Assembly: GCA_039630545.1 (NCBI GenBank)
Contig: JBCNUU010000005.1
Location: 32,001-96,000, forward strand
Reading direction: 5' to 3'
Origin: Endomicrobiia bacterium
GTDB taxonomy: Bacteria; Elusimicrobiota; Endomicrobiia; DTEH01
DNA length: 64,000 nt
The notes under the pieces are model-generated. The model worked only from the letters and a program-made list of their open reading frames with translations. It made no database searches and was not told the DNA's origin. The translations under genes and the position numbers were made by a program. Shown here piece after piece: positions 1-18,602 of the stretch; the first letter of the stretch is position 1, and every line of letters starts with the position of its first letter.

Positions 1-570
1 TATATCTAATGGCGTTTCTGCTATTATTGAGTGTCCACAAGAAAATGCAGATAAAGAAATTGTTTTGTAATTTTCTTTTACAGCCATACCCACAAGTATT
101 TTTTCGTTTTTTGTCAATTCGCATACTAAAGGTAGAATTTCCATGTCTTTTTCTATATGATTACAACCTAAAATTATTAAAGGTAATTGAGTTGTGTTTA
201 AAACTTCTGGAATGAAGTTTATTAAATATTCTCTGGAGTTATTTTTTGTGTCAGGATGGCAAGAAAACAATCTTATGCATATAGCATCTGGTTCGGTTTT
301 TTCTATTTCTTTTATCCATTTTAGAGGGTCTGTGACTATATCTTTAAATTCTTCATAAAATGTAGGCCATAGATCTTCAGGTAAATAATCCAGAACTTCA
401 GCTGCTATTATGGGTTTGTTAGGAATGTTTCCTTCAAATTCTAGAAAAGGTAGAGTTTTTTGTCCTCCAACTTTGATGACTTTGTTGCGACTTCCTCCTT
501 CTTCTTTTGTAGCACCAATTGTAACTGTGAATATTTCTGATGAGTACTTTTCTATCAAGTATTCCACCAT
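1..570 (-). CDS. acsD: Corrinoid Fe-S protein small subunit (AcsD/CdhD), 3' end runs off the window
   Basis: Not in the ORF track. Manual translation from ATG at 570 gives MVEYLIEKYSSEIFTVTIGATKEEGGSRNKVIKVGGQKTLPFLEFEGNIPNKPIIAAEV...GHSIIAETPLDI, the typical AcsD N-terminus, open to the window edge. Confidence 0.9.
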   Translation of the reverse strand, partial: MVEYLIEKYSSEIFTVTIGATKEEGGSRNKVIKVGGQKTLPFLEFEGNIPNKPIIAAEVLDYLPEDLWPTFYEEFKDIVTDPLKWIKEIEKTEPDAICIRLFSCHPDTKNNSREYLINFIPEVLNTTQLPLIILGCNHIEKDMEILPLVCELTKNEKILVGMAVKENYKTISLSAFSCGHSIIAETPLDI

Positions 571-592
571 ACAATTTAAATTCTACTTTTTG

Positions 593-1543
593 TTAACTAA
601 AAATTTTATATCCTTCTATATGAAACCCAAGTTGAATTTTTAATAGATGTAGTAAATTTTTTGCTAAAATGCAAGTTGTTACAGAACCTACTCCCCCCGG
701 AACTGGTGTAATAAAAGATGCTTTCTTAGAAACATTTTCAAAATCAACATCTCCTACAATTTTAGTTTTTGGTTTACCTGATTTTTCATCAATGATTTCT
801 TTACCATTTTCATCTAAAACTTTTATTTTATTTATCCCCACATCTATAACTACAGCTCCATCTTTTACCATATCAGCAGTAATAAAGTTTGGTTTTCCCA
901 CTGCTACAATTAGAATTTCAGCACGTCTTGTGTGTTCTTGTAGATTTTTGGTTGCAATGTGGCATACAGTTGGAGTTGCTGAACTTAAAAGTGAAGACAG
1001 TAACATAAGCAAAATCGGTTTTCCAACTATTTCTGAATGGCCAACAATTACAGTTTCTTTACCTTTAAGTTCGATACCCGTTTCTTTTAAACATTCTATT
1101 ACTGATAGTGCAGTACACGGCGCAACAGTTAATGGTACTTCTGCATAAAAAAGTTTACCTAAGTTTTCTGCTGTAATTCCTTCTATGTCTTTGATTGGAG
1201 ATATTTTGTTTTGAAGATGTCTTTGATTAAGATGTTGTGGTAAAGGTAAATTTAACATTATAGCGTTAGTGGTAGGATCTAAATTGAGATTTGTTATTAA
1301 TTGTTCTATTTCTTGTTGAGTCGCATTTTCTTTAAGTTGGATAATTTCAATTTTTATTCCCAATTCTTCAAATATTTTGCATTGGTTGTTAACATATACT
1401 TTTGTTGCAGGATTTTCTCCTACAATTATAGAAGCTACTTTGGGAGTAAACTTAGATTTGTTTTTTATTTCTTCTATTCCAGATTTTACTTCTAATTTTA
1501 TTTTTTCTGCAATTTTTACTCCGTCTATAATTTTTGCTAGCAT
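593..1543 (-). CDS. folD: Methylene-THF dehydrogenase/methenyl-THF cyclohydrolase
   Basis: IIDG N-terminus, PCT, VGHSEIVGKP, VIDVGIN, VGDVDF and ITPVPGGVG motifs. Confidence 0.95.
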   Translation of the reverse strand: MLAKIIDGVKIAEKIKLEVKSGIEEIKNKSKFTPKVASIIVGENPATKVYVNNQCKIFEELGIKIEIIQLKENATQQEIEQLITNLNLDPTTNAIMLNLPLPQHLNQRHLQNKISPIKDIEGITAENLGKLFYAEVPLTVAPCTALSVIECLKETGIELKGKETVIVGHSEIVGKPILLMLLSSLLSSATPTVCHIATKNLQEHTRRAEILIVAVGKPNFITADMVKDGAVVIDVGINKIKVLDENGKEIIDEKSGKPKTKIVGDVDFENVSKKASFITPVPGGVGSVTTCILAKNLLHLLKIQLGFHIEGYKIFS

Positions 1544-1577
1544 ATTTTTTCCTTAATTATTATTTTATTAAATTACC

Positions 1578-2444
1578 TTATTTTCTAGGCTCAACATGTA
1601 CGGTTATTTCTTTGATCTGTGGGTTAAAACTTTTTAATATCTTTTTTACTTCTTCGGCTATATTATGAGCTTCTTCTAAAGTTAAATCTTTGTCTACTTC
1701 TATTTCTGTTTCAATAAAAAAGTGTCTTCCAACTCGATGAATTCTTGTAGAATAAGAATTTTCTACACCATTTACAGAAGCTATTAGATTATCAATTTCA
1801 GTTTTCATTTTTTCAGATGGTAAAGTATCCATAATTATTAGCATATTTTCTTTCAATATATCTATGCCCATTTTAAAAATAAAAATAGAAATTATAATAC
1901 TTCCTATGGCATCCATTGCTAAAACTCCAGATTTTGTGGCGATTATTGCAAATAAAGCACCTACTGAAGAAAAAGCATCAGACCTGTGATGATATGCATT
2001 TGCTGTTATTACAGGTGAATTTAATTTTTTGCCTACCAGAAATGTGTATCTGAAAAGTAATTCTTTTACGATTATAGAAATGATGGCTGCATATATTGTT
2101 ATAGTTTTAGGAATGCTGTAGTGTTTATGGATTAATATATGTATTGCAGAGTAGCCAAGAAATATTCCTGTAATAAGAATCAAAAAAGAAACAAAAATTG
2201 CGGATATAACTTCTATATTACCATGACCATAAGGATGATTCTTGTCAGCCGGCTTTTGTGAAAGATGAAGTGATAAATATACAATTATCGTTGCTATTTC
2301 ATCAGATAGTGAATGAAGTGCATCGGCGATTAGTGTCTGACTTTTACCTAAAATTCCTACTAAAAACTTTCCAACAGTAAGAAAAAAATTAACTATTAAT
2401 CCTATTGTTGTGCAAGTCTTATCGTTAGAAAAATTTATTTTCAT
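1578..2444 (-). CDS. Cation diffusion facilitator (FieF-like) metal exporter
   Basis: ADALHSLSD, HPYGHG, HHRSD and C-terminal VHVEP motifs; multiple TM segments. Confidence 0.9.
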   Translation of the reverse strand: MKINFSNDKTCTTIGLIVNFFLTVGKFLVGILGKSQTLIADALHSLSDEIATIIVYLSLHLSQKPADKNHPYGHGNIEVISAIFVSFLILITGIFLGYSAIHILIHKHYSIPKTITIYAAIISIIVKELLFRYTFLVGKKLNSPVITANAYHHRSDAFSSVGALFAIIATKSGVLAMDAIGSIIISIFIFKMGIDILKENMLIIMDTLPSEKMKTEIDNLIASVNGVENSYSTRIHRVGRHFFIETEIEVDKDLTLEEAHNIAEEVKKILKSFNPQIKEITVHVEPRK

Positions 2445-2710
2445 CCAAGGTTGTATCTTTTTCTAATTGGTTCTTTTACATCCCATACACATTTAAGTCC
2501 CTTCGGGAAACTTACAAGATCACCTTTTTTAATTTCGTATTTCCCATTTTCCGTTTCAACAATTACTTTTCCCTCTAATATATAACAAGTTTCATCTTCA
2601 TCATATTCCCAATTAAACTTTGATATTTCACATTCCCATATTGGCCAGCTATTGACTTTTAGTTTTTCAAGTTCTTCTTTTGTAGGTTGTTTTATTTTTA
2701 TTTCTTTCAT
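2441..2710 (-). CDS. Small cupin (Cupin_3/DUF861 type)
   Basis: WPIWECE..F.WEY..DETCYILEG.V...GDLVSFPKGLKC.WDV pattern. Confidence 0.8.
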   Translation of the reverse strand: MKEIKIKQPTKEELEKLKVNSWPIWECEISKFNWEYDEDETCYILEGKVIVETENGKYEIKKGDLVSFPKGLKCVWDVKEPIRKRYNLG

Positions 2711-2750
2711 AAAAATAACTCCTTTTAAAATGATTCCCCTATATTTAGAT

Positions 2751-4049
2751 TTATTTTCCTATTAGAAGATAAACAATAAAGATACTACTTAAAATCCACA
2801 TCGTTGGACTTATTTCTTTGAATTTACCGGAAAATATTTTTAATAAGGTGTAGCTTAAAATACCAAATATTAAACCGTTTGCTATACTATAAGTAAATGG
2901 CATTATAATCATGGTTAAAAATGCTGGAAGAACCTCAGTAATATCCTCAAAGTTTATTTTTAAAACAGGTTCAAGCATCATAAGTCCAACAATCACTAAA
3001 GCAGGAGCTGTTGCTTCCTTTGGTATAGCGCTAGCTAATGGCCAGAAAAATAAGGATAACAAAAATAAAATGCCTACAGTAACAGCAGTAACACCTGTTT
3101 TCCCACCTTCTGAGATACCAGCAGCACTTTCTATGTAAGTAGTCACAGTTGAAGTGCCAAATATAGCACCTAACATTGTAGCTATAGAGTCACATATTAA
3201 AACTCGTCCTACTCTTGGGAAACTTCCATCTTTTTGTATTATTCCAAGTTTTGCAGCAAGCCCAACAATTGTTCCTAAAGTATCAAACATATCTACAAAG
3301 GTAAATGTAAAAATTACAGCTATAAGTCCGAGTTTTATTGCTTCCAGAATTTTAAGTTTAAATAAAGTGTAAGAAAATACTTCTAAAGAAGGAAATGCTA
3401 AAAATTTCTCTGGTAATTTCGTAAGTTTACTTCCATCAGGTAGTTTTATAAATATTCCTATAAAAGTAAGAATAAGTATTGTCCATAAAAGTGCTCCTTT
3501 TACTTTCTTTGCTATTAAAAATCCTGCTAAAAGTATACCCAAAGTTGCTAGCATTACTGAACCTAATTTTATATCACCAAAAGTTATCATGGTATCCTTA
3601 GAAGCTACCACAATTCCTGCATGTTGAAGTCCTATTAGTGCTATAAACAGACCAATTCCAGCACTCACAGCATATTTAAGATTTAAAGGAATACCTTTTA
3701 CAATTTCTTGTCTTACAGGAAGAACAGAAAGAATAAAAAACAAAGCTCCGTCTAAAAAAACAGCTCCTAAAGCCACCTCCCATGGTAATTTCATGCCAAT
3801 ACATACACTATATGCAAAATATGCATTTAATCCCATACCTGGTGCTAAAGCAAACGGATGCTTTGCATAAAGTCCCATAAGTATACAGGCTAACCCACTG
3901 GACAACGCAGTTGCCATCATTACGGCGTGTCTGTCCATTCCGCAGTCAAAAAGGATAGCAGAGTTGACAAATAAAATATATGACATGGTCATAAAAGTAG
4001 TTACACCTGCGATTATTTCTGTTTTTAGTTGTTCTGTTATTATTTTCAT
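2751..4049 (-). CDS. NCS2/AzgA-family purine (guanine/hypoxanthine/adenine) permease
   Basis: EIIAGVTTFMTMSYI, APGMGLNAYF, DMFDTLGT, TTYIESAAG and PFTYSIANG motifs. Confidence 0.9.
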   Translation of the reverse strand: MKIITEQLKTEIIAGVTTFMTMSYILFVNSAILFDCGMDRHAVMMATALSSGLACILMGLYAKHPFALAPGMGLNAYFAYSVCIGMKLPWEVALGAVFLDGALFFILSVLPVRQEIVKGIPLNLKYAVSAGIGLFIALIGLQHAGIVVASKDTMITFGDIKLGSVMLATLGILLAGFLIAKKVKGALLWTILILTFIGIFIKLPDGSKLTKLPEKFLAFPSLEVFSYTLFKLKILEAIKLGLIAVIFTFTFVDMFDTLGTIVGLAAKLGIIQKDGSFPRVGRVLICDSIATMLGAIFGTSTVTTYIESAAGISEGGKTGVTAVTVGILFLLSLFFWPLASAIPKEATAPALVIVGLMMLEPVLKINFEDITEVLPAFLTMIIMPFTYSIANGLIFGILSYTLLKIFSGKFKEISPTMWILSSIFIVYLLIGK

Positions 4050-4675
4050 ATCTTTATTTTTTGTAAAACTTTTTTTGTGATTATTTTTGCGTCGGTTATT
4101 ATTCTTTTAATTTGTTTTTTCTTTTCAACTACAAAAGATGTTTTCGGAAGATTTTTTAGGTTAATTACCACATTATACTTTGCAGCCTGTATTCCTGCAA
4201 GTAAAAATATAACTCCACAAGCAATGTCTGTTATTAAATTTTGATTTCCTATTTTTAGTAATCTTTCTGAATAGGAAATACATTTATGTGATAAATCCAT
4301 AACATCAAATGCAACTTTTGCTGCTTCTTCACATGCTAATTTTATTTGTTTGTTTCTTATTTCAATATCCAGTGGTGTATTTTTGGGCAGTTTATATGCT
4401 TTTGAGACTTCTAGGTAAGCTTGTACATCTTTGTCAACATATTGTTGAAGTTCTTTTTTAAGTTGATTTAGTTCTTCAATGATTTTTTTTATTTCCTGTT
4501 GGTGTTGTTCATAACCTTTTTTATTAACAGTAAAATTTGCCACCATTAAAAGACAACTAACTCCTGCAGATGCTACTAAAGCTGCAGCTGAACCACCGCC
4601 AGGTGCCGGAAGGTTGGATGCAAGGTCATTTAAGTAGTTTTCTATTGTATTAAGAATATATTGTGATTTTTCCAT
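4046..4675 (-). CDS. fchA: Cyclodeaminase/methenyl-THF cyclohydrolase (FTCD_C family)
   Basis: LAS..PAPGGGSAAA, GNQNLITD and YNVVINL motifs; WLP context. Confidence 0.85.
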   Translation of the reverse strand: MEKSQYILNTIENYLNDLASNLPAPGGGSAAALVASAGVSCLLMVANFTVNKKGYEQHQQEIKKIIEELNQLKKELQQYVDKDVQAYLEVSKAYKLPKNTPLDIEIRNKQIKLACEEAAKVAFDVMDLSHKCISYSERLLKIGNQNLITDIACGVIFLLAGIQAAKYNVVINLKNLPKTSFVVEKKKQIKRIITDAKIITKKVLQKIKI

Positions 4676-4687
4676 ATAAGTTTTTTT

Positions 4688-5572
4688 CTACAGTCCACAT
4701 AAATTCAGTAAATTAGGAACTTTATCATTCCACCCAAGTGGCATTATATGGATTCCGTTACAATATGATTTTATATCTTTTATTATTTTTGCTGCAATTT
4801 CTATACCTGTTTGTCCTGATTTTGTTTTTTCTTTGTCTTTTTTTAGTTCTTCAATTAGGTATTCTGGAACATTTACCCCTGCAAGATTTTCATTCATAAA
4901 TTTTGCCATGCCAGCAGATTTAAGGATGGTTATTCCAGCCATTATAGGTATTTCCCCAAAATTTTTTCTTACAATTTCCATAAACTTAATAAATTTATCC
5001 GGGTTAAATATAAGCTGAGTTTGAAAAAATTCAGCGCCTGCTTTTATTTTTTTTTCCATCTTAAATAATTGGGGGTCGAGTGGTTCTGCTTCTGGAGAAA
5101 CCACAGCACCTATACAGAAACTCGGAGGATCGCCTTCAAGTTTATTGCCAGCAATATCATATCCTTCCATTAAACGTTTTACTGTGTAAATTAATGATAC
5201 GCTATCTAAATCAAACACAGGTTTGGCATCTTTATGGTCACCTAATACTACATGATCTCCTGTAAGCAACAAAAGATTTTCTATTCCAAAATAGGCAGCG
5301 TTGAGAATATCTGATTGAAGAGCTAGTCTGTTTCTATCACGACAGGTAAGCTGATATATTGGCTCAAAGCCGTGTTGTTTAAGTGTAATACACATACCAA
5401 GAGAACCAAATTTCATAACTGAAGATTGGTTGTCTGTTACATTTATAGCATCAACTTTATCCTTTAGATATTTTTTTATCTCTTCAATTAGGTGCCCAAT
5501 TTGCCATCCTTTAGGGGGACCGATTTCAGAAGTGATTACAAATTTTTTCAAAAATAAATCTTTTAATTTCAT
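4688..5572 (-). CDS. metF: Methylene-THF reductase catalytic subunit
   Basis: EIGPPKG, VTDNQ, TCRDRNR, LTGDH, FFQTQ and GIHIM motifs. Confidence 0.93.
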   Translation of the reverse strand: MKLKDLFLKKFVITSEIGPPKGWQIGHLIEEIKKYLKDKVDAINVTDNQSSVMKFGSLGMCITLKQHGFEPIYQLTCRDRNRLALQSDILNAAYFGIENLLLLTGDHVVLGDHKDAKPVFDLDSVSLIYTVKRLMEGYDIAGNKLEGDPPSFCIGAVVSPEAEPLDPQLFKMEKKIKAGAEFFQTQLIFNPDKFIKFMEIVRKNFGEIPIMAGITILKSAGMAKFMNENLAGVNVPEYLIEELKKDKEKTKSGQTGIEIAAKIIKDIKSYCNGIHIMPLGWNDKVPNLLNLCGL

Positions 5573-5588
5573 TTGTGTTTATATTTTA

Positions 5589-6188
5589 TTATATAAAAAT
5601 TTGTTTATTAAGTAAATCTAATTTATTTAAATTTTTCAATTTTAAAATAATTTTCTCCCAGCCACAATCTTTTGTTTTGTCAACTTCACATTTTCCATTT
5701 TTTGCACCACCACATGGTCCGTTAAGTAAAGATTTAGAACAGCTTGTAATGGGACATATAGTGCCTGTGTAGTTAAGATAACAGCTGCCACACAAAGCAC
5801 AATCAAATTTTCCCTCATATGGAAGATTGTATCCCTTGTATCCTGTAAGATAAAAAGTATTACAAATCCCAAATACTTTCTTTTCAGATACTAAAGAAGA
5901 TAAAGTTGCCACACCTATGCCGCATGAAAATATAATTAAAGCATCCTGGTTTTCTATTTCTTTAGATAGAAAAGATAGGTATTTGTTTACATAATCTATG
6001 TTACATATATAATCTAAAATTTCCACAGTAACTTTATGCTTTTTTTCCAAGATTTTAGAGTAATTCAGAGCATCTTTAATTGAAACATATACCTCATTGC
6101 AACCATTACATATAAGATAAAACAATTTTTCGTAAGGCTGAACAATATCTAAAATTTCTTTTTCCGGTTTAGGTTTTGTTATAAACAT
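5589..6188 (-). CDS. metV: Methylene-THF reductase Fe-S/Zn subunit MetV
   Basis: SCGIGV, CALCGSCYL..TGTICPIT.CSKSLLNGPCGG...GKCE....CGW motifs; directly upstream of metF. Confidence 0.9.
   Translation of the reverse strand: MFITKPKPEKEILDIVQPYEKLFYLICNGCNEVYVSIKDALNYSKILEKKHKVTVEILDYICNIDYVNKYLSFLSKEIENQDALIIFSCGIGVATLSSLVSEKKVFGICNTFYLTGYKGYNLPYEGKFDCALCGSCYLNYTGTICPITSCSKSLLNGPCGGAKNGKCEVDKTKDCGWEKIILKLKNLNKLDLLNKQIFI
5649..5741. repeat. 93-bp exact direct repeat, copy 1 (inside metV)
   Basis: Base-for-base identical to 7616-7708; encodes CSKSLLNGPCGGAKNGKCEVDKTKDCGWEKI. Confidence 0.95.
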
Positions 6189-6196
6189 AGTTAGTT

Positions 6197-8194
6197 TTAT
6201 TCCATAATAGATTTTTCTTTTTTAATGATGTCTACTATTGGAATTTTAGAAGAACATACATATTGACAACATCCACACTCTATGCATGTTTTTATATTGT
6301 ACCTATTAGCTTCTGATAAACTGCCCTTTTGGTAGCACTTTACAAACTCTAAAGGTTCAAGTTCCATAGGACATACATCCACACATCTTCCACATTTAAT
6401 GCATTTGTTTTGGTGGTTTTCTTCTATATATTTTTTTATTATTAAAATACCATTACACCCTTTAATTATAGAAGTAGTAAAGTCTTCTATCTCAGTTCCT
6501 GTCATATACCCTCCATATTTTATTTTAAACTCATCTGTTAAAAATTCTTTATTGTAGCATTTTTGCAAAATGTCTTTAAGCACGGTTCCTATTTTGATTT
6601 TGTAGTTGCCATATTCTTTTTTTATTTTTTCTTCTCCTGAGATGGTGACTATTCTTTCTATAAGTGGCAATCCTTTTACTACAGCATTATATATCGCAAA
6701 TACTGTTGATACATTCTGGACAAGAAATCCAAAATCCAATGGTATTTTATCATACGGTATATAAACATTAAAGAGTTTTTTTATTAAGATTTTCTCAGCG
6801 CCGTGAGGATATTTTGTTTTGAGTACAACTATTTCAACTCCTTCAGGTTTTATCTCGTTTAATTTCTGTATTGCCTGGGGTTTGTTGTCTTCTATAACAA
6901 GCAGAATTTTTTTTGGTTCAATAAGATATTTTATTATTTTAACACCTTCAAAAACTTCTTCTGAGTGTTCTATCATAATTCTATTATCAGCGTTTAAGTA
7001 AGGTTCACATTCACAACCATTTATTATTAGAGTATGTATAGGTTTTGGAGGCTGCAATTTTACATGGGTAGGAAACACGGCTCCACCTAATCCTACAATA
7101 CCTGCTTCTGAAATTGCTTCTATTATTTGTTGTTTTGGAAGTTTTGTCCACTCAGAGCATGGTTTTATTTCATCTGTTATGTTTTCTTTGAAGTCGTTTT
7201 CTATCACTACAGCAGGCAGTTTTTTTTGTAGTTTAGGATGGAGTACTTCTTTAAATCCTAAAACTTTTCCACTTACAGGAGAGTGTAAGTTTGAAGAAAT
7301 AAGTCCATCTTTTTTTGCGATTTTTTGTCCGATTTTTACATAATCGCCTTCTTTGACTAGAGGAATAGATGGTTTTCCTGTGTGTTGTAAAAGAAATAAA
7401 GTTAAAAATTGTGTTTCTGGGAATTTCTTAATTGCGATGTCTTCTGTAATTTCTTTTTTTTCAACAGGGTGAACCCCACCATAAAAATTATTTATTCTTA
7501 TTTCTAAATTGTTATCTACATTTTGTTTATGTTGAGAATAATTCATTATATTATGGTTTCTTATCAGCACACTATTCATAAAAGAAGTTAAATCTTCATT
7601 TTCTAATTTTTTGCAAATTTTCTCCCAGCCACAATCTTTTGTTTTGTCAACTTCACATTTTCCATTTTTTGCACCACCACATGGTCCGTTAAGTAAAGAT
7701 TTAGAACAATAAACTATAGGACAGATACCTTTCGTATAATTAAGATAACATTCACCACAGGTTGCACAAAAGGTTAAATTGTTTAGGTTTATGCCATGCT
7801 GAATTACTCCAGCAGTAGAGTTATAGGAGGGCTGAACTGAATCTGTAAAGGATATGGTTTCTTTTGGAACAATATCAGCTACAAACTGTACACCAATTCC
7901 ACAACTTACTACACCAACAACCTCTACATAAGGATAATCGTTGTAAGCAGTAATGATTTTCTGTTTGTTAAAATAAGAATTGCATAAAAAATTTAGTTTA
8001 AGACAAAACAATAAATTCTTATTACGAGTAGTCAGAAGGTTGATGATTTCTTTACATTGGTAAGAAAAATTTTCTAATGATAACTTCTCATAGCATCCAT
8101 TACAAATAACTATTCCGATATTATTTTTATCTTTTATAAGTTCTAAAATTTCATTTTCTGGTTTAGTTTTAAATTTTATAAAATTTACCCTCAT
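6197..8194 (-). CDS. rnfC2: RnfC2-type protein: N-terminal MetV-like domain fused to an RnfC/RsxC NADH/FMN/Fe-S domain
   Basis: Roughly aa 1-200 are MetV-like (SCGIGVQ, CATCGEC, CSKSLLNGPCGG). The rest is RnfC-like (FYGGVHP, QHTG, HSPVSG, GIVGLGGAVFPT, INGCECEPYL, CIKCGRCVDVCP, CIECGCCQYVC). Confidence 0.88.
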   Translation of the reverse strand: MRVNFIKFKTKPENEILELIKDKNNIGIVICNGCYEKLSLENFSYQCKEIINLLTTRNKNLLFCLKLNFLCNSYFNKQKIITAYNDYPYVEVVGVVSCGIGVQFVADIVPKETISFTDSVQPSYNSTAGVIQHGINLNNLTFCATCGECYLNYTKGICPIVYCSKSLLNGPCGGAKNGKCEVDKTKDCGWEKICKKLENEDLTSFMNSVLIRNHNIMNYSQHKQNVDNNLEIRINNFYGGVHPVEKKEITEDIAIKKFPETQFLTLFLLQHTGKPSIPLVKEGDYVKIGQKIAKKDGLISSNLHSPVSGKVLGFKEVLHPKLQKKLPAVVIENDFKENITDEIKPCSEWTKLPKQQIIEAISEAGIVGLGGAVFPTHVKLQPPKPIHTLIINGCECEPYLNADNRIMIEHSEEVFEGVKIIKYLIEPKKILLVIEDNKPQAIQKLNEIKPEGVEIVVLKTKYPHGAEKILIKKLFNVYIPYDKIPLDFGFLVQNVSTVFAIYNAVVKGLPLIERIVTISGEEKIKKEYGNYKIKIGTVLKDILQKCYNKEFLTDEFKIKYGGYMTGTEIEDFTTSIIKGCNGILIIKKYIEENHQNKCIKCGRCVDVCPMELEPLEFVKCYQKGSLSEANRYNIKTCIECGCCQYVCSSKIPIVDIIKKEKSIME
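7616..7708. repeat. 93-bp exact direct repeat, copy 2 (inside the rnfC2 MetV-like domain)
   Basis: Identical to 5649-5741. Confidence 0.95.
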
Positions 8195-8242
8195 TTCAGT
8201 TATTCAAAATTTATGCGAACCAATATCCAGCTTTAAGATAAA

Positions 8243-10459
8243 TCACATCAAAGGTGGTAAAGATAAGGCTGGATGATTGACTTTTGTTAAGTGTTCAAGC
8301 AACTGCTGTGGATCTGTAGTTATTGTTTCATCTGCTATTTTTTCTAACAAATCTGGTTCTCCTATTTCTTCACAGCGTTTTTTGAGTTTTTCATATAACA
8401 TATCTTTTAATTCTTTAGTCATCCAGACAATTCGTTTAAGTCCACCTTCTGGAAGTAAAAACTTTTTGCTTACTAAATATAATCTTCCCACACCTAAAAA
8501 CCCTGGAATCTGATTTCCGCCACCTACAGAACCTGCTAAAGTTGAAAATGTCATTCCACAGGGCGTCATACCAGTATATCCTCGGTTTACTACCATAAAA
8601 CCATTACATTCTGGAAGAATAGCTATGATACACTCAAAGCATCCACAGGATGTAGTTGGATATTCCATGATAGAATAATTCAAAAACCTTTCAACTGCAC
8701 CATGTGATGCTTCGTGGACAAATTTATTAACCCCTTCCCATTCTCCTTTTAAAGGATCAATACATCTTCCTTTTATAATAGGTTGGTTCATCCCTTTAGG
8801 ATTAATTTCATAAGCTGCTTTTCCATCAATCCAGTTATATGCTCCACAAAGACCAATCTTTTCTGGAGTAATTACACAAACATGGTTTGGCGCATAACTC
8901 TGACATAAGGTGCATGAATAAAAAGTATCCACAGCTTCATCAGTTAATCCAGCAAGACGAGTATCACGTTCATCATAAATTTTTAATATCTGTGGCAACA
9001 ATTCCTTAATTTTTGTTTCGTCAGTATAAATTTTAACCTGAACTTTATCTACCAGTGCAGGAAAATCTTCTAAAAATTTTGCAACTAAAATTTTACCAAA
9101 ATGTTTTAGTCTAAATCCTGAATTATATGCTTCTTTTGAAATTCTTATCCAGTTTTGATTTCTTTGTCCCATATGAAATATACCTTTTGCAAAGCTTATA
9201 TAGTGGTGGATTTGTCTTTCTAAAATAGATTCAAAGTCTTTTTGCATTTTTCTTCCTGCTACTTCTACAACTATACCTAGAGGCATTGCAAAAGGTAACT
9301 TGTCGGATTCAACTTTTACTTCGTCTATATCATGACCAACAACTTCTATTTTTCCATTTTCAATTTCCTCAAAGGATCTCATTAAAACTACTTCAAAAGA
9401 TGTGGAGTATTTGCCTCCAAATTCTACATAAGTTTCTTCTTTTCTTACTCGTTCTCCTTCAAAAGCAGCCCCAAATGCTACCGGGATATCTATTTTTGAA
9501 ATTTTAATTTTAAGACCGCGAATTTCTATAGCTTTGTTTACAATTTCTTCTTGAGGTACAGGAGAAACTACATATTCATAAGTACCAACTCCACTTGAAA
9601 GTATCTGACCAATATCTGTATCTGCAACTACAGGAAAACCAAAGTTTATAGCACCCGCAGCTGTTGCAAATTTTTCTTCATCTACTTCTCCTAAGGCAAT
9701 AATAAACGCAAATACTCGTTCTTTGTTGTATAAAAGTATATCTTTTGCTTTGCCAGGTTGAATTCCTCCAAAAGACATTGCTGCTCTTGTTGCAAAATTT
9801 AAAGCATAAACTGTGGATGTTATATCGGTCCCGTGAGGAACCAAAAATACATCCCAGCCCATCTGAATTCCTTCCTGAGCAAGTTGTTGTGCTATACAGA
9901 TCTTTTTTCCGTTTACAAGAGAAGTGGCTGACATAAATACGAGTATATTTCTTTCTTGCAACTGAGTTATTATTTTTTTTGCAGTGTCAACATCAGAAGG
10001 AGCACCTACTATTGTTGCAAAACCAGGCATTCTTCCATCTACAAGTTTAATGCCCTGTTCTCTTAAAATCATATCATTTGTAAAACCTACCCAGAAATCA
10101 TGGTTAGGTTTGGGATGATAGTCTGGTAATGAATATTTAAGTGCTTCAATAATTTCTTCAGCAAATAAAGTAGCTATACCAGCGTCAAGGGTATCACCTA
10201 AATAGGTTAACCAAAGTTCTTCCGAAGGAAGCACTGGCAGCAATTTTTTTGTATATTCAATCATAGGGAACAAATCACCCAATTTTTGAATTTTTTCTGC
10301 AGTCATAGCATATATAAAAGGTAAATAATAAGCAGTGTCTGGAAAACCAACCGGCAGTTCTTTGCCATATTTTTCAATTGCTTTATTTAGCATCTCTTCT
10401 GCACGAGCTACAATTTTGTGTGCTCCCAAAATTGCTTTTGTAGCAATCATCTTTGACAT
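8243..10459 (-). CDS. acsB: Acetyl-CoA synthase (ACS) catalytic subunit, intact
   Basis: GFPDTAYYLP N-terminal domain; A-cluster ligands CTLCQSYAPNHVC..PE..GLCG and TSCGCFE all present; 738 aa. Confidence 0.96.
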   Translation of the reverse strand: MSKMIATKAILGAHKIVARAEEMLNKAIEKYGKELPVGFPDTAYYLPFIYAMTAEKIQKLGDLFPMIEYTKKLLPVLPSEELWLTYLGDTLDAGIATLFAEEIIEALKYSLPDYHPKPNHDFWVGFTNDMILREQGIKLVDGRMPGFATIVGAPSDVDTAKKIITQLQERNILVFMSATSLVNGKKICIAQQLAQEGIQMGWDVFLVPHGTDITSTVYALNFATRAAMSFGGIQPGKAKDILLYNKERVFAFIIALGEVDEEKFATAAGAINFGFPVVADTDIGQILSSGVGTYEYVVSPVPQEEIVNKAIEIRGLKIKISKIDIPVAFGAAFEGERVRKEETYVEFGGKYSTSFEVVLMRSFEEIENGKIEVVGHDIDEVKVESDKLPFAMPLGIVVEVAGRKMQKDFESILERQIHHYISFAKGIFHMGQRNQNWIRISKEAYNSGFRLKHFGKILVAKFLEDFPALVDKVQVKIYTDETKIKELLPQILKIYDERDTRLAGLTDEAVDTFYSCTLCQSYAPNHVCVITPEKIGLCGAYNWIDGKAAYEINPKGMNQPIIKGRCIDPLKGEWEGVNKFVHEASHGAVERFLNYSIMEYPTTSCGCFECIIAILPECNGFMVVNRGYTGMTPCGMTFSTLAGSVGGGNQIPGFLGVGRLYLVSKKFLLPEGGLKRIVWMTKELKDMLYEKLKKRCEEIGEPDLLEKIADETITTDPQQLLEHLTKVNHPALSLPPLM

Positions 10460-10477
10460 AGTTTTTTTCTCCTTTTT

Positions 10478-11351
10478 TAATTTCAGTGCTTCTCGTTTTT
10501 TATTTTAAAGGATCTGGTTTAAATACATATTTTCTTCTAATAATTTTTTCAACTTCTTGAGTGCAAAATTTTACAACATTTTATGCTTCTGTTACATGAT
10601 ATGGAGTTCCAAAAAATACAAGTACTCAAGAAGCTACAAAGTAGCATCCTATTGTTATTGCCTTATTGTTATTGCCTTTTCTGAATACCATTAAAACACA
10701 GCACCTGCTATTGGCATTCGTCTAACGAGTTACAAATGTCTTCTTCTTTCAACATAGCATAACATGCAATAAGAATTCTTGAGTTGTCAACACAAGAATC
10801 AAAATGTAACACAGGTGGCATCCCTACTGCTTTGCAGATCTCCTGCAGCCCTTTACCTGCGTATTCAAAAGCAACTTCTGATTTCATCAAACCTTCTTTT
10901 GGGCACTCAATAGCAACACAGTCTGTTTCTACAACTAACACATCATGTTTTAAAAGTTCATTGGGCGTTATTACATGCTAATGTCCACTTAATAATTTTG
11001 GATTGCTATACCTTACAAGTCCTACAACACCGCAAATTCTTCCATCGCAAATAGCATCATTTTTTATGCTATATTTAGCCATAGGTTATTTTCATAGCAA
11101 ATCTTTTTTATTTTTCAGGGAATTTTGTGGGAATAGAAAAAATCACCTTTTTATTTCTCAAATTCTTTAGGTATTTTGTGAACAAACTTTTTTGCTATTA
11201 AATTTTTTAGATTTGGTGTCTGTTTGAAAATCAAATTCTTTGGTTATAATTTTGAGTTTTTTATAGTTCTACTAGTTTCAAGATTTAATTCTTCTATGAT
11301 TTGTTTTACTTTTAGTGTGGTTTGATTCTGTGTTTTAACTTCTGATGAAAT
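10478..11351 (-). pseudogene. cooS: Anaerobic Ni-CO dehydrogenase catalytic subunit pseudogene with large internal deletions, stops and frameshifts
   Basis: Manual translation: DAICDGRICGVVGLVRYSNPK...H*HVITPNELLKHDVLVVETDCVAIEC.KEGL...GMPPVLHFDSCVDNSR / PIAGAVF*WYSEKAITI / GCYFVAS*VLVFFG.P...KPDP / KKREALKL. AGGAG plus 7 nt then ATT at 11351 is a probable mutated start. About 0.87 kb remains of a gene normally about 1.9 kb. The 5' boundary is inferred. Confidence 0.9.
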
Positions 11352-11369
11352 AGAATAACTCCTTTTTAT

Positions 11370-12030
11370 ATGTTAATGAAAATTGACTTTACTTTTTGGA
11401 AAAAACTGAAGAAGATAATTTTATTTTGCTTTCTTCAAATTTTTGCAAAGGTTTATTAAAATTTATATAATTTTATATTTTTTTTCAACTGTTGTTAAAT
11501 GAAAATTAGATCAGGTTGTGTAGTGATTTTTTTTGCAATAATGTTTACTTTTTTAATTTTTAATTCTTCTGCTAGATTTAAAATTCTTTGTGTAGTTTGT
11601 ATACTTTTTAATGTAGGTTCTGTCAAAATAAAAAGTGTATAATATATTTCTTGTTGTTTTTCGTGTTAGTACTTCTATTTCCTGCAAGGAGGTTTATAAT
11701 TATGACTTCATCTGTGTTTAAAATTAAATGTGTAAGTAAACTTTTAAGAAAAGCATTTTCAGGGCAATAACAGCCACTATCTGCTTTCTTTATTATAAGT
11801 AAGTATAAATTTTCTCTTTTAAAAGAATACTTTTCAGAAACATCGCTTACTTTCGTATTAAGTATATAGAACCCAGTTTTAAGTTTTAAGGTTTAAGTTT
11901 TAAGGTTTGACTTGGTTCTTTCTTCTATTAAATGCTTAAGTTCAGATATAAGGGTAATATTTTTAAGCTCTTTAGGAAATTCTAATGTAAAACCTAAATT
12001 TCCATTAGGGTTTGCATCTGTAGCATTATA
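11370..12030 (-). pseudogene. cooC: CODH nickel-insertion ATPase CooC pseudogene
   Basis: Fragments DANPNGNLGFTLEFP...ISELKHLIEERT / SGCYCPENAFLKSLLTHLIL..DEVII / EPTLKSIQTTQRILNLAEELKIK...*. The P-loop is missing and there are frameshifts. Boundaries are approximate. Confidence 0.85.
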
Positions 12031-12380
12031 TATTCTATTATCCAATGGACATACATTTACATAAATTCCACAGCGACTAGATATTAAAATTTCTTTTTCT
12101 TTGTTTTAAAAATCTCCACGGTTAAAAAAGCAAAAATCCTGAAGTACAGACAAATTATCATTAATCGGTATAAAAAAACTCATGATAACTAAAAATATGA
12201 AAGATGAACTAATTGTTGTAAAGATGCTATAATCTATCTAAAGGAATAAATTTATATAACTATCAATTATCCTTTCGAATATAAGAAAAAGTATATCGTG
12301 ATAGACACATCTTGCATATGGATTTCACACCACATTCTTTCAAACAGTTAAAATTAAAAATAAAAAAATACGAGGAAACA
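12031..12380 (-). pseudogene. Possible remnant of a membrane 4Fe-4S (NapH/polyferredoxin-like) gene
   Basis: Fragments ERMWCE (resembles GRxWCG), a hydrophobic stretch, and RCGIYVNVCPL (degenerate CxxCxxxCP); interrupted frames. Confidence 0.35.
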
Positions 12381-12410
12381 AAACTTTATTGTTTGTAAAC
12401 TTTATTGACT

Positions 12411-12710
12411 CTAAAAGAAAATGCATAAAACATATTCTAAATTGCCTTCAGGTATTTCAGTATAAAATTTTTTATTAAAACCTTTTAAATCCACAGTAAC
12501 TGCGTCTGCATATTTTATTAACTCTTTTAAAGGAATAGGATTAACAGAACCATTTGTATGAAACAGCACTTTTAATCCTTTTTGTTTTGCTAATTTAGCA
12601 ATATCATATATATATTCATAAAAAATTGTTGGTTCATTTATATTGTGAGAAATTGATTTGCAGTTATTTCTTATTGCTTCTTTAATTACTTGTTGTGGTG
12701 TATAATTATT
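12411..12710 (-). pseudogene. Internal fragment of an AmmeMemoRadiSam (AmrS-type) radical SAM gene
   Basis: TPQQVIKEAIRNNCKSISHNINEPTIFYEYIYDIAKLAKQKGLKVLFHTNGS..P.PLKEL..Y.DAVTVDLKGF...FY; no start codon, no CxxxCxxC, truncated at both ends. Confidence 0.75.
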
Positions 12711-12834
12711 ATATGGAAAAATTGCTATGTATGAATGTAGTTATTCATTAAAATAATATGTAATGTTATAGCGAAATAATTGCCACTTTTTTGAAAAGAA
12801 ACTGTAACTTTATTGCTATTTTTTAATCGTTATT

Positions 12835-14544
12835 TTAAAATAATCCTATAACTTTTCCATTTTCATCAATATCAACTTTTGTACCAGCAGGAACCGAAGG
12901 AAGGCCTGGCATAGTTCTTATTTCTCCACACAATGGAGACAAAAATCCAGCACCAATAGATGCTCTAATATCTTTTATTGGCAACACAAAATCTTTTGGT
13001 CTTCCTTTCCAGGAAGGTTCATGAGAAATTGAAAGATGTGTTTTAGCCATACAAATAGGAAGTTTATCCCAACCAAGTTCTGTATATAATTTTATTTTTT
13101 CCTCTGCAACAGAAGAATATTGAACCTCTTTTGCACCGTAAATTTTTGTAGCTATAATGTGAATTTTATCTTTAATAGGGATATCTAATGGATAAAGAAA
13201 TTTAAAATTATTAGGTTTATTAGCTGTTTTAATTACTGCAAAAGCAAGATCTTTGCCTCCCTCTCCACCTTTTGCCCATACTTCAGAGACTACTGCTTCT
13301 TCTGCACCAAAATCTTTTGCACGCTTTTGTATTAAAGAAATTTCTTTGTCTGTGTCGGTTGTAAATCTATTTATTGCTACCACTACTGGAACTCCGTGAA
13401 TTAGAACATTTTCTATTTGTTTTTCTAAATTACATAACCCTTCTTCTAATAGTTGTAAATTTTCTTTTGTTAACTCTTCAGGTAAAGGTTTTCCTGGAAG
13501 AACATTGATTTTTCCAGAATGCATCTTCAAAGCTCTCACTGTAGCTACCATTACTACACAGTGTGGTGTAAGTCCTGAATAACGGCATTTTATATTCATA
13601 AATTTTTCCATACCACAGTCTGCACCAAATCCGCTTTCTGTAACGACATATTCTGCAAGTTTGGTAGCAATAAGATCAGCAAGTATTGAACTATTTCCAT
13701 GAGCAATGTTAGCAAAAGGTCCTGTATGAACAAACACTGGGGTGTATTCTGTTGTTTGTAGAAGGTTTGGTTTTATAGCATCCTTAAGTAATACAGTCAT
13801 TGCTCCAGCAACTTTAATATCTTCTGCTGTTACGGGTTTATTATCGTAAGTAAATGCTACTACTACTTTAGAAAGACGTTTCCTGAGATCTTGTAAGGAA
13901 TTAGTTAACGCAAGAATCGCCATAAGTTCTGATGTACCAGAAATATCAAAACCACTACTCAAAGGCATTCCGTCATCACTTACAGGACCTAATCCAATTA
14001 TAATATTTCTTAAAAAACGTTCTGAAACATCCATTACATACCGCCATAAGATTTTTTTGGGGTCAATTGGAATTTGTCGTCTATAGAGTGCATTATTTAA
14101 AAATGCCATACATAAATTATGGGCTATAGAAACCGCATGTGTATCACCTGTAAGATGGAGATTGAAATCCTCCATGGGAAGAACTTGTGAATAGCCACCT
14201 CCTGCAGCTCCACCTTTTATACCAAACACTGGTCCCAAAGATGGTTGTCTTATACAGGTAAAAACTTTTTTTCCTAACTTTGCCAGTCCTAAAGAAAGTC
14301 CAATTGTAGTAATGGTTTTCCCTTCTCCAAGAGGAGTAGGTGTTATCGCCGTTACATCAATATATTTTGCTTGAGGGTTATTTTTAATTCTTTCTAAAAT
14401 TTCAAGTTTCACTTTAGCTTTATAGTCTCCATAGAGCTCCAATTCAGAAGGTAGTATTCCCGCCAGTTTAGCAATTTCAGTTATAGGTTTTAGTTTTATA
14501 CTCTGTGCTATTTCTATATCTGATGGAACTTCATAGTATGCCAT
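12835..14544 (-). CDS. fhs: Formate-tetrahydrofolate ligase
   Basis: SDIEIAQ, TAITPTPLGEGKT, GIKGGAAGGGYSQ, GPFANIAHG and TMPGLP motifs. Confidence 0.97.
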   Translation of the reverse strand: MAYYEVPSDIEIAQSIKLKPITEIAKLAGILPSELELYGDYKAKVKLEILERIKNNPQAKYIDVTAITPTPLGEGKTITTIGLSLGLAKLGKKVFTCIRQPSLGPVFGIKGGAAGGGYSQVLPMEDFNLHLTGDTHAVSIAHNLCMAFLNNALYRRQIPIDPKKILWRYVMDVSERFLRNIIIGLGPVSDDGMPLSSGFDISGTSELMAILALTNSLQDLRKRLSKVVVAFTYDNKPVTAEDIKVAGAMTVLLKDAIKPNLLQTTEYTPVFVHTGPFANIAHGNSSILADLIATKLAEYVVTESGFGADCGMEKFMNIKCRYSGLTPHCVVMVATVRALKMHSGKINVLPGKPLPEELTKENLQLLEEGLCNLEKQIENVLIHGVPVVVAINRFTTDTDKEISLIQKRAKDFGAEEAVVSEVWAKGGEGGKDLAFAVIKTANKPNNFKFLYPLDIPIKDKIHIIATKIYGAKEVQYSSVAEEKIKLYTELGWDKLPICMAKTHLSISHEPSWKGRPKDFVLPIKDIRASIGAGFLSPLCGEIRTMPGLPSVPAGTKVDIDENGKVIGLF

Positions 14545-14560
14545 AAGTTTTCACCTCCTT

Positions 14561-15355
14561 TTATTTTTTACGATAAGCCTCTAAGAACGACTCACAATAT
14601 AATTGTTTACCCAAAAGGAGTTCCGCAGTGATTATTGCATCCATAAGTTCTTTATCTAACGGATTTAAAATTGCACTATCTAAACCAGAAGCCAATGCTA
14701 ACACTACATAAGTTCGGTCAATTAAATTTCTATATTTTGTTCCTTGAGAAACATTAGATAATCCTAATAGAGTTTTAGGAGGTGGATCTGATACAAGTTT
14801 TATTTGCTGGATTACTTCTAATACGGCAGTAGCATTCTGTTGTGATACATTAATTGGTAGGATTACAGGATCTATAAATAAATTTTCTACATCATATTCG
14901 TACTCAACACATTTTTGAATAATGTTTGTTACTAACTCCATTTTACCTTGAACATCCTGTGGAACACCTGACTTTGAAATAGTTAGTGCTATAAGTTTCG
15001 CATTATATTTTTTTGCCATTGGGATGTAGATATCTAACTTTTCAAAGTCAGCATGTGTAGAATTTATGAAACATCCTTCTCCTTTGCTTGCTGTTTTGAG
15101 ACCTTCTTGCATTATTTCAGGTTTAGTAGTATCAATTGCTAAAGGTGCATCAGTTATTTCTCTAATAGTATTAATAAGCCACAACATATCTTCTAACGGA
15201 TTTATAGATTCAGGTCCTACATTTACATCCAGCGCATTAGCTCCTGCCTCAAGCTGTTGTTTAGCAAGCTCTTTAATAAACTCCGAGTTACGTTCTTTTA
15301 TTGCCTGGTTTACTTTTTTAAACATTCCGTTTATTTTTTCTCCTATGATATACAT
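14561..15355 (-). CDS. acsE: Methyl-THF:corrinoid Fe-S protein methyltransferase
   Basis: IIGEKINGMF, LDVNVGP, LAIDTT, IDP, GLSNVSQ and GLDSAI motifs; C-terminal YCESFL. Confidence 0.92.
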   Translation of the reverse strand: MYIIGEKINGMFKKVNQAIKERNSEFIKELAKQQLEAGANALDVNVGPESINPLEDMLWLINTIREITDAPLAIDTTKPEIMQEGLKTASKGEGCFINSTHADFEKLDIYIPMAKKYNAKLIALTISKSGVPQDVQGKMELVTNIIQKCVEYEYDVENLFIDPVILPINVSQQNATAVLEVIQQIKLVSDPPPKTLLGLSNVSQGTKYRNLIDRTYVVLALASGLDSAILNPLDKELMDAIITAELLLGKQLYCESFLEAYRKK

Positions 15356-17879: not shown

Positions 17880-18602
17880 TTAAACAATTTTTTCTAAAAA
17901 TTTTTTTAAATCCGAATAAAAATTTGTGTTGTGTAAATTGTTTAACAAATGAATTCCACTTTCTGAATAATTATATATTATTTCATCTTTGTTAATTATC
18001 CCGTCAACTTTTATGTCAAATTCATTTTTGTTGTTATCAAAGAAGTTTAATAATACTTTAGTCGTAGCAATTTTAAGTTTCAATTTTGGTATCATTTCTA
18101 AAATTTTTTTGGCAGTTTGTATTGAGACTTTCGCAGGATTAATTACAATAATTAATATATCAATATTATCTGTAGTTCTTCTGGAAAAATGTTCCATTCC
18201 AGCTTCCGTATCAATTAATATGTATTTGTAGTTTTTACTTATATTAGAAAGAAAAGTTCTTAATAATTCATTTACGAAACAATAACATTCTTTACCTTCT
18301 GGTCTTCCCATGACAATTAAATCAAACCCTTTTTTTTCTACTATAGCTTCTTGAAGACGCATAGTTATATAATCTGCTTTTGAGATATGTTGAGGAATTT
18401 CTAAACTTCTTAATTCTTCCCTTATGTCAGCAATTGTTAGGTTATACTCTATGCCTAAATTCTCGGCAAGATTGGAGTTTGGGTCAGCATCTACTACTAA
18501 AACAGGTGTAAGGTTTAAATCCAGTAAGTAATTTAAAATTCCACAAGTAATAGTAGTTTTACCTACTCCTCCTTTACCACACACAGCAATTTTTTTATTC
18601 AT
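17880..18602 (-). CDS. acsF: CooC/AcsF-family nickel-insertion ATPase, intact
   Basis: [31 protein letters not shown] and [14 protein letters not shown] motifs. The RPEG..CYC/SRRTT signature resembles the CooC2/AcsF subtype. Confidence 0.8.

Follow-up and report, generated by a model that had tools for sequence, protein, structure and literature searches.

Can an acetyl-CoA synthase (ACS) stay useful to a cell whose carbon monoxide dehydrogenase (CODH) has been lost? The question is posed by a 64,000-nucleotide stretch of DNA from an Endomicrobiia bacterium (phylum Elusimicrobiota; contig JBCNUU010000005.1, positions 32,001 to 96,000), hereafter the window, in which acsB, the ACS gene of a Wood-Ljungdahl pathway (WLP) cluster, stands next to wrecked genes for the CODH (cooS) and its nickel insertase (cooC1). 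The window belongs to contig C45 of a genome here called G000 (1.60 Mb, 29% GC, 82 contigs, completeness 95.5%, contamination 0.17%). The reading favoured below, at a probability of roughly one half, is that G000 has lost both CO2-reducing enzymes of the WLP, CODH, present as a fossil, and formate dehydrogenase (FDH), not found, and keeps a selected ACS as a free enzyme joining external CO to a methyl group.

Decay of the CODH genes

On the minus strand, which carries all window genes located below, the cluster reads acsE, fhs, a 2.4 kb wreck, acsB, a MetV-RnfC2 fusion gene, metV, metF, fchA, a permease, a cupin, a CDF transporter, folD and acsD. The named genes outside the wreck are open frames, as the initial annotation of the window had reported for acsB, acsE, fhs, folD, fchA, metF and metV, and they pass, or best match, their own family models. 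Its description of cooS and cooC beside acsB as wrecked is borne out by the lesions mapped against related genomes. The cooS pseudogene (10475..11350) keeps ~870 of ~1,900 bp. Compared with the unbroken CooS proteins of G005, from the same genus, and G009, from the same family, codons ~3-25, ~115-180 and 424-630 are left, the two short pieces matching weakly (E 8e-5 to 2e-3), and codons ~26-114 and ~181-422 are deleted. Four stops (at 10980, 10693, 10628 and 10583) all lie in the C-terminal piece, the last 0.6 kb, together with three frameshifting indels (a 1-bp deletion, a 29-bp deletion and a 14-bp duplication) and the substitution Cys447>Tyr. The two deletions take out the B- and D-cluster cysteines and three C-cluster ligands; a fourth C-cluster ligand is the one changed by Cys447>Tyr. 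The cooC1 pseudogene (11375..12040) has lost its first ~27 codons, P-loop included, and carries frameshifts and stops besides. A third wreck between fhs and cooC1 (12410..12760) is the remnant of an AmmeMemoRadiSam radical-SAM gene whose counterparts in G003 and G006 are open over their assembled length. Both cooF and a FAD-NAD oxidoreductase gene (FNOR), located between cooS and acsB in G005, G009 and the metagenome locus L186, are gone from G000. L186, the one true relative among 7 loci returned by a metagenome scan with the AcsB N-terminal domain, carries cooF-FNOR-acsB plus the end of cooS. A scan of the wrecked stretch for promoters and terminators gave chance-level counts (20 vs 14.8 +/- 4.2).

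The window stretch is also present in three public hot-spring metagenome runs (one study, at most two samples), and contigs of all three carry the same cooS/cooC wreck, in run X1 on a single 18 kb piece at 125x; X1 is possibly the source of the window and so not surely independent. All 9 differences between these contigs and the window (6 substitutions, 3 indels) fall inside the wrecked 2,375 of 6,601 bases compared (naive p 1e-4). Sequencing error, against which the initial annotation had argued, and assembly error are ruled out by the contigs of three runs reproducing the wreck. When run contigs were placed on the G009 cluster at 80% likeness, no host-depth contig covered the cooS parts deleted in G000, the uncovered part itself giving no evidence. 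Separately, at L045:6397-7748, low-depth contigs (4-5x) of runs X1 and X3 match cooS, including parts deleted in G000, as well as acsB and fhs; a rare relative that still has cooS shares the same spring.

Two profile searches of the G000 assembly found no CooS-family sequence other than the fossil, and FDH likewise gave no PF00384 match in this 95.5% complete assembly. The G000 pathway is thus not a complete WLP: intact Ni-CODH and FDH were not found, while the AcsB ligands, AcsC, AcsD and AcsE are present.

Selection on acsB after the loss

The acsB gene (8243..10459, 738 aa) aligns over its full length with the Carboxydothermus and Moorella enzymes of solved structure and retains the equivalents of the A-cluster cysteines C506, C509, C518, C528, C595 and C597 and of H516. 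The closest named record in the AcsB search, L066, is 83% identical. Against the sister genome G003, the ratio of nonsynonymous to synonymous rates (omega) is 0.088 for acsB, 0.077 for acsE, 0.104 for acsD, 0.138 for acsC, 0.071 for fhs, 0.149 for cooC2 and 0.216 for RACo; housekeeping genes range over 0.02-0.20 in the same pairwise comparison, in which synonymous sites are near saturation. Relaxed selection on acsB is therefore not seen. Changes at second codon positions found only in G000 number 21 of 184 in the cooS remnant (G009 3, G005 6) and 11 of 738 in acsB (G003 24, G009 29), a contrast between fossil and acsB with a Fisher p of 1e-8. In the cooC remnant the signal is weaker (20 of 206 vs 13 and 14). 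At the lesion density of the fossil ~25 lesions would be expected in acsB, and 0 are seen. Since the death of cooS, acsB is under purifying selection.

G000 and G003 are sisters with 100% support. The excess divergence of the fossil (0.03-0.11 substitutions per site) lies far below the G000 terminal branch at four-fold sites (0.57-1.5, depending on the model), and cooS therefore died after the two genomes split. The loss is real, recent and specific to the lineage, in keeping with the initial proposal that CODH was lost here and its fossil is still visible. In G003, cooC-cooS is cleanly absent between the radical-SAM gene and acsB, probably by a separate deletion. The AcsB proteins of both genomes share D284G and H296Y, which counts against full independence of the losses; coupling to CODH may already have loosened in their common ancestor.

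Distribution of CODH-less ACS among related genomes

Among 61 related genomes searched for AcsB and CooS, 15 gave an AcsB match and 6 a full CooS. The 14 with unbroken acsB comprise six with full cooS, G001 with cooS cut, G006 with a gap at the locus, and six without CODH from three families (G000, G003, G010, G011, G013 and G017). These genomes are not independent, and the six cases correspond to about three to five events. Molybdopterin oxidoreductases, searched for in 22 genomes as the mark of FDH, matched in 0 of the 6 CODH-less acsB genomes vs 7 of 7 acsB genomes with cooS or a gap (G056 not searched). Completeness is 88% for G003, 97% for G010, 96% for G011, 98% for G013 and 89% for G017. 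The locus breaks at contig ends in G001, G006 and G021, with cooS cut by the contig end in G001 and G021; in G010, G011 and G013, both flanks of acsB are assembled and CODH and FDH are still not found. G006 was dropped as a CODH-less candidate, the region from the radical-SAM gene to mid-acsB being unassembled and FDH present. All A-cluster ligands are intact in CODH-less G010 and G013 and in the pair G011/G017. Both the joint loss of FDH and this recurrence across the class go beyond the initial annotation.

Other relatives have gone further. Searches of G004 (96% complete), G007 and G002 did not find acsB. In G008, a remnant of acsB (L052:11166-11720; residues 558-743, 2 stops) lies beside an intact acsD and shows the following stage of loss in fossil form. 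G004 keeps fhs, metV-rnfC2, metV, metF, fchA, folD, acsE, acsC/D and a MesB-like gene without a detected acsB. Loci L202, L203 and L198 of G004 and G007 hold the methyl branch, MetV-RnfC2, AcsE, the corrinoid iron-sulfur protein (CFeSP), RACo and a MesB-like protein, with no ACS, CODH or intact FDH found; the acetogen-type module is apparently kept there for methyl biosynthesis alone. Since G004 retains the methyl branch and CFeSP without acsB, these are kept for biosynthesis anyway, and only acsB and cooC2 need an explanation of their own. Retention of methyl branch and CFeSP was accordingly rejected as evidence of a working ACS pathway, both being kept by G004 and G007, where no acsB was found.

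The AcsB of G000, G003, G006 and G009 (L045, L043, L058 and L026) groups apart from that of G001/G005 (68%), even though G009 is a more distant relative than G001/G005; replacement of the gene within the family is likely.

The N-terminal domain of AcsB

A reference of 309 conserved columns was drawn from the 50 of 80 fetched AcsB loci with a near-complete cooS in the flank. In the N-terminal domain, 10-25 of these columns deviate in the six CODH-less AcsBs vs 0-5 in seven CODH-linked ones; the middle and catalytic domains differ little between the two sets. Two patches, chosen after seeing the data, cover positions 284-297 and 78-92; all 6 CODH-less proteins deviate in them and none of the 7 CODH-linked ones does. 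In G000 the changes are P85T, D284G, P288S, C292G and H296Y. The eroded patches are a putative contact surface for docking CODH.

Remaining pathway genes and metabolic context

Upstream of the wreck lie fhs (formate-tetrahydrofolate (THF) ligase; 12835..14544, intact, 86-90% to ACS-bearing kin) and acsE (methyl-THF:CFeSP methyltransferase; 14561..15355, intact); ackA precedes acsE in several kin and is missing there in G000. Downstream of acsB, the open frame named rnfC2 in the initial annotation is intact (6197..8194, 665 aa) but is not a plain rnfC2; it encodes a MetV-RnfC2 fusion beside a second, stand-alone metV (DUF5981; 5589..6188, intact), and the fusion is likely the NADH-binding part of methylene-THF reductase. 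It is found in G004, G005, G006, G007, G010 and G021 as well. There follow metF (methylene-THF reductase; 4688..5572, intact, 88-92% to close kin), fchA (methenyl-THF cyclohydrolase-like; 4046..4675, intact), an NCS2 permease gene of xanthine/uracil type (2751..4049), a small EutQ-like cupin gene (2441..2710), a CDF-family cation transporter gene (1578..2444), folD (methylene-THF dehydrogenase/cyclohydrolase; 593..1543, intact) and the 5' part of acsD (CFeSP small subunit; 1..570). The CDF metal transporter, kept in the ACS cluster of kin, and the permease (together 1578-4049) stay inside the methyl-branch cluster of several kin, where they could support the pathway through metal homeostasis or by taking up solutes. 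The whole acsD gene (316 aa) is followed by scpB and not, as had been expected, by acsC, which is intact on contig C5 (442 aa) with RACo (653 aa). An intact cooC2/acsF lies at 17880..18602. Its product is likely the nickel insertase of ACS, judging from gene context, because class members without CODH carry its homologues between RACo and acsD and the corresponding slot is empty in ACS-less G007.

Elsewhere, G000 has SerA, GlyA and MetE, a pyruvate:ferredoxin oxidoreductase (PFOR) beside a complete rnf operon, an ADP-forming acetate-CoA ligase (ACD) and a Pta N-terminal-like protein. No match was found in G000 for GcvP (glycine cleavage), AckA, MetH, pyruvate formate-lyase (PFL) or the formate-nitrite transporter (FNT) channel. 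A HydABC-like [FeFe] hydrogenase trimer with maturases is present, its HydA being 'group A6' by NCBIfam name (subgroup assigned without a tree); at L196 (G000:C23:24000-35000), HydABC stands with hydE/F/G and a Rex-like regulator. Within the family HydA matched in G000, G002, G004, G006 and G007 and not in G001, G003, G005, G008 or G009. An anti-correlation of [FeFe] hydrogenase with cooS was not used, G003 and G008 breaking the pattern and G006 being unresolved. A group 4-type [NiFe] hydrogenase large subunit has both CxxC motifs (subgroup again without a tree), and its Mrp-linked operon at L194 (G000:C34:45747-57216) has AsrA/AsrB-like (sulfhydrogenase beta/gamma) subunits at its head. At L193:1418-3796 (G000:C45:129417-131795), a MesB-like gene is coupled to one for a 438-aa protein that looks like a fusion of hexulose-phosphate synthase and an RraA-like domain; the same two genes again stand next to the ACS cluster in G010, G013 and G016. 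A methylotrophic source of methyl groups was unsupported, the 2 B12-binding matches in G000 sitting in frames of 421-479 aa and not in small corrinoid proteins.

Proposed function of the free ACS

Judged by gene content, the remaining genes are predicted to connect acetyl-CoA with CO and either formate or methylene-THF, and to give CO2 no point of entry. Either Fhs would feed in one-carbon (C1) units as formate or GlyA would do so as methylene-THF derived from serine, and FolD/FchA and an NADH-type MetF-MetV-RnfC2 would reduce them to methyl-THF. AcsE would then load CFeSP with the methyl group, and AcsB would bind dissolved CO, with no CODH tunnel. The resulting acetyl-CoA could go to biomass via PFOR, or to acetate and ATP via ACD, with HydABC and Rnf giving NADH and conserving energy; without CO2 reduction, ferredoxin would be spared. 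Acetate formation from CO + formate + 2 H2 amounts to -118 kJ/mol under standard conditions and to -16 to -74 at assumed low concentrations, as calculated from formation energies. As synthesis is exergonic, only synthesis could yield energy, and cleavage offers no energy route. CO-consuming synthesis by free ACS is favoured because the methyl supply has other routes, kin drop ACS yet keep those routes, and ACS is conserved here. Published work is consistent with such chemistry: ACS has a dissociation constant (Kd) for CO of 0.74 uM and receives CO from solution (PMC12289521), and direct entry of 13CO into acetyl-CoA in two thermophiles has been attributed to free ACS (10.1101/2025.10.29.685450). 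Such synthesis would bring the cell additional carbon and a sink for electrons, and would clear away CO that would otherwise inhibit the [FeFe] hydrogenase; CO use probably adds to fermentation rather than supporting autotrophy.

Several points weigh against use of external CO by a free ACS. As a rule, hot-spring waters contain dissolved CO at concentrations under the reported Kd of ACS, so that the CO flux may be small. Neither a formate source nor a formate channel was found in G000 (no FDH, PFL or FNT match), and ackA is missing, though ACD can replace AckA. G011 and G017, CODH-less too, gave no metF match, which fits cleavage of acetyl-CoA in that lineage. The next step of loss is on view in kin (G008 has a broken acsB, and none was found in G004, G007 or G002), and the CODH-less state can be transient. 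As to the eroded AcsB patches, the loop is kept in all 22 of the 80 loci that lack cooS in the fetched flank (a count of flanks only, genomes not searched), and C. autoethanogenum AcsB, a CODH-binding enzyme, has a short loop similar to that of G011/G017.

A wider claim, doubtful as a whole, is that free-living Endomicrobiia have repeatedly made the WLP blind to CO2 and CO-scavenging, dropping CODH and FDH together, freeing the docking surface of ACS from selection and drawing energy from CO + formate + H2 -> acetate via HydABC and Rnf. If true, eroded AcsB loops would be a sequence marker of CODH-free ACS, usable even in fragmented metagenomes.

Alternative explanations

ACS might instead run in reverse, a possibility that is rather unlikely for G000: acetyl-CoA would be cleaved to methyl-CFeSP for a MesB-like methionine synthase and other C1 needs, with CO as waste, a route described for Dehalococcoides mccartyi (PMC7005905). 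Consistent with this, a MesB-like core methionine synthase, so labelled from a weak PF01717 match (E 3e-4) and homologues beside ACS genes in kin, occurs in 18 of the 22 genomes searched, G000 included, and MesB is predicted to take its methyl group from CFeSP (PMC7857596). The glycine cleavage system gave no match, which leaves serine as the one alternative C1 donor found, and the missing formate channel and the metF-less pair G011/G017 point the same way. D. mccartyi, however, needs the route as it is without MetF, AcsE and MetE/MetH, whereas G000 has MetF, AcsE, MetE and SerA/GlyA, and G004 keeps the CFeSP/MesB route without ACS. The analogy with Dehalococcoides drawn in the initial annotation thus holds for AcsB without CODH and is weaker as a precedent, since metF, acsE and metE are present (metH is not). 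By calculation, cleavage to CO and formate is endergonic, and the CO released would threaten the [FeFe] hydrogenase. G011 and G017, whose loci L049 and L051 combine a CODH-less ACS, no metF match and a deleted 290-296 loop, may be better candidates than G000 for cleavage of the Dehalococcoides type.

That G000 merely occupies the middle rung of a decay, with CODH and FDH gone first and acsB, now of marginal value, due to follow as in kin, is still less probable. The family does form such a ladder, from complete (G005, G009) through CODH/FDH-less (G000, G003) and broken acsB (G008) to no acsB found (G004, G007, G002); the fossil is young by the substitution estimates given above, and ackA, MOSC, cooF, FNOR and the radical-SAM gene are also lost or broken at the locus. 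Set against this, the omega values of acsB and cooC2 lie within the housekeeping range, neither gene has gathered lesions since cooS died, and the CODH-less state recurs in G010, G013 and G011/G017 with A-cluster ligands all intact.

It is most improbable that the G000 assembly missed an intact CODH partner of ACS (and FDH), the fossil being a redundant copy, even with 82 contigs at 95.5% completeness, this very locus breaking at contig ends in three kin and acsA lying far from acsB in other phyla (PMC13737181), given that both profile searches matched only the fossil, that cooC1, cooF, FNOR, FDH and MOSC are lost as well, that the double absence recurs in three genomes of 96-98% completeness with both acsB flanks assembled, and that AcsB patches conserved in CODH-adjacent enzymes are eroded.

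Relation to known systems and significance

The proposed use of external CO by a CODH-free ACS has a closer precedent than Dehalococcoides, one that the initial annotation did not draw on. A partial WLP without FDH and AcsA/CooS/F was described in 24 Omnitrophota species, with formate and CO as suggested substrates (Seymour et al. 2023, PMC10066038). Like the Velamenicoccus archaeovorus type in that study, G000 has ACS, CFeSP, AcsE, the methyl branch, Rnf and PFOR, with FDH and AcsA/CooS/CooF not found, and pairs a group 4-type [NiFe] with a trimeric [FeFe] hydrogenase (4g/A3 in the Velamenicoccus type). Unlike that type, which has Pta and AckA, G000 gave no AckA match and has ACD instead; it belongs to another phylum, and the absence of CODH is backed by a cooS/cooC fossil and measured selection on acsB, unreported in the available part of that study. 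With D. mccartyi (PMC7005905, PMC7857596), G000 shares AcsB and CFeSP without CODH and a MesB-like methionine synthase; it differs in keeping MetF-MetV-RnfC2, AcsE, MetE, SerA and GlyA, which leave no gap for cleavage by ACS to fill. The thermophiles of 10.1101/2025.10.29.685450 resemble G000 in the proposed entry of CO into the carbonyl of acetyl-CoA without CO2 reduction and in their hot anoxic habitat. In them, as far as the available text goes, CODH is kept and free ACS is optional, whereas the ACS of G000 is without any CODH and neither branch fixes CO2.

Within the phylum, acetogenesis has been predicted in free-living groundwater Elusimicrobia with a complete Rnf-type WLP by Meheust et al. 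(10.1101/765248), who scored the carbonyl branch as complete at 4 of 5 subunits. G000 has Rnf, a group 4 [NiFe] hydrogenase and an ACS gene set in common with them but cannot reduce CO2 by this pathway, and a G000-like genome would pass the 4-of-5 rule as complete. The pathway is not discussed in the text examined of Mies et al. (PMC11257099). A literature search, with most subscription papers outside its coverage, returned no report of CODH-less ACS in Elusimicrobiota, nor of a cooS fossil with measured selection on acsB. The concept therefore has precedent in the Omnitrophota proposal; what is new is another phylum, fossil proof of the loss, selection on ACS afterwards and repeated loss of CODH plus FDH in one class, with a candidate sequence marker of CODH-free ACS as a further addition.

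Metagenome bins often contain ACS gene sets that lack a CODH, and such sets are readily written off as assembly gaps or counted as complete autotrophic pathways. At this locus, the loss is caught in progress and selection on ACS continues afterwards, which marks stand-alone ACS as a real and useful state. Close kin form a matched series (complete, CODH-less, ACS-less) for asking whether ACS alone fixes environmental CO. The answer matters for CO cycling in hot springs, for deciding which microbes are autotrophs and for proposals of an early WLP that fixed CO directly.

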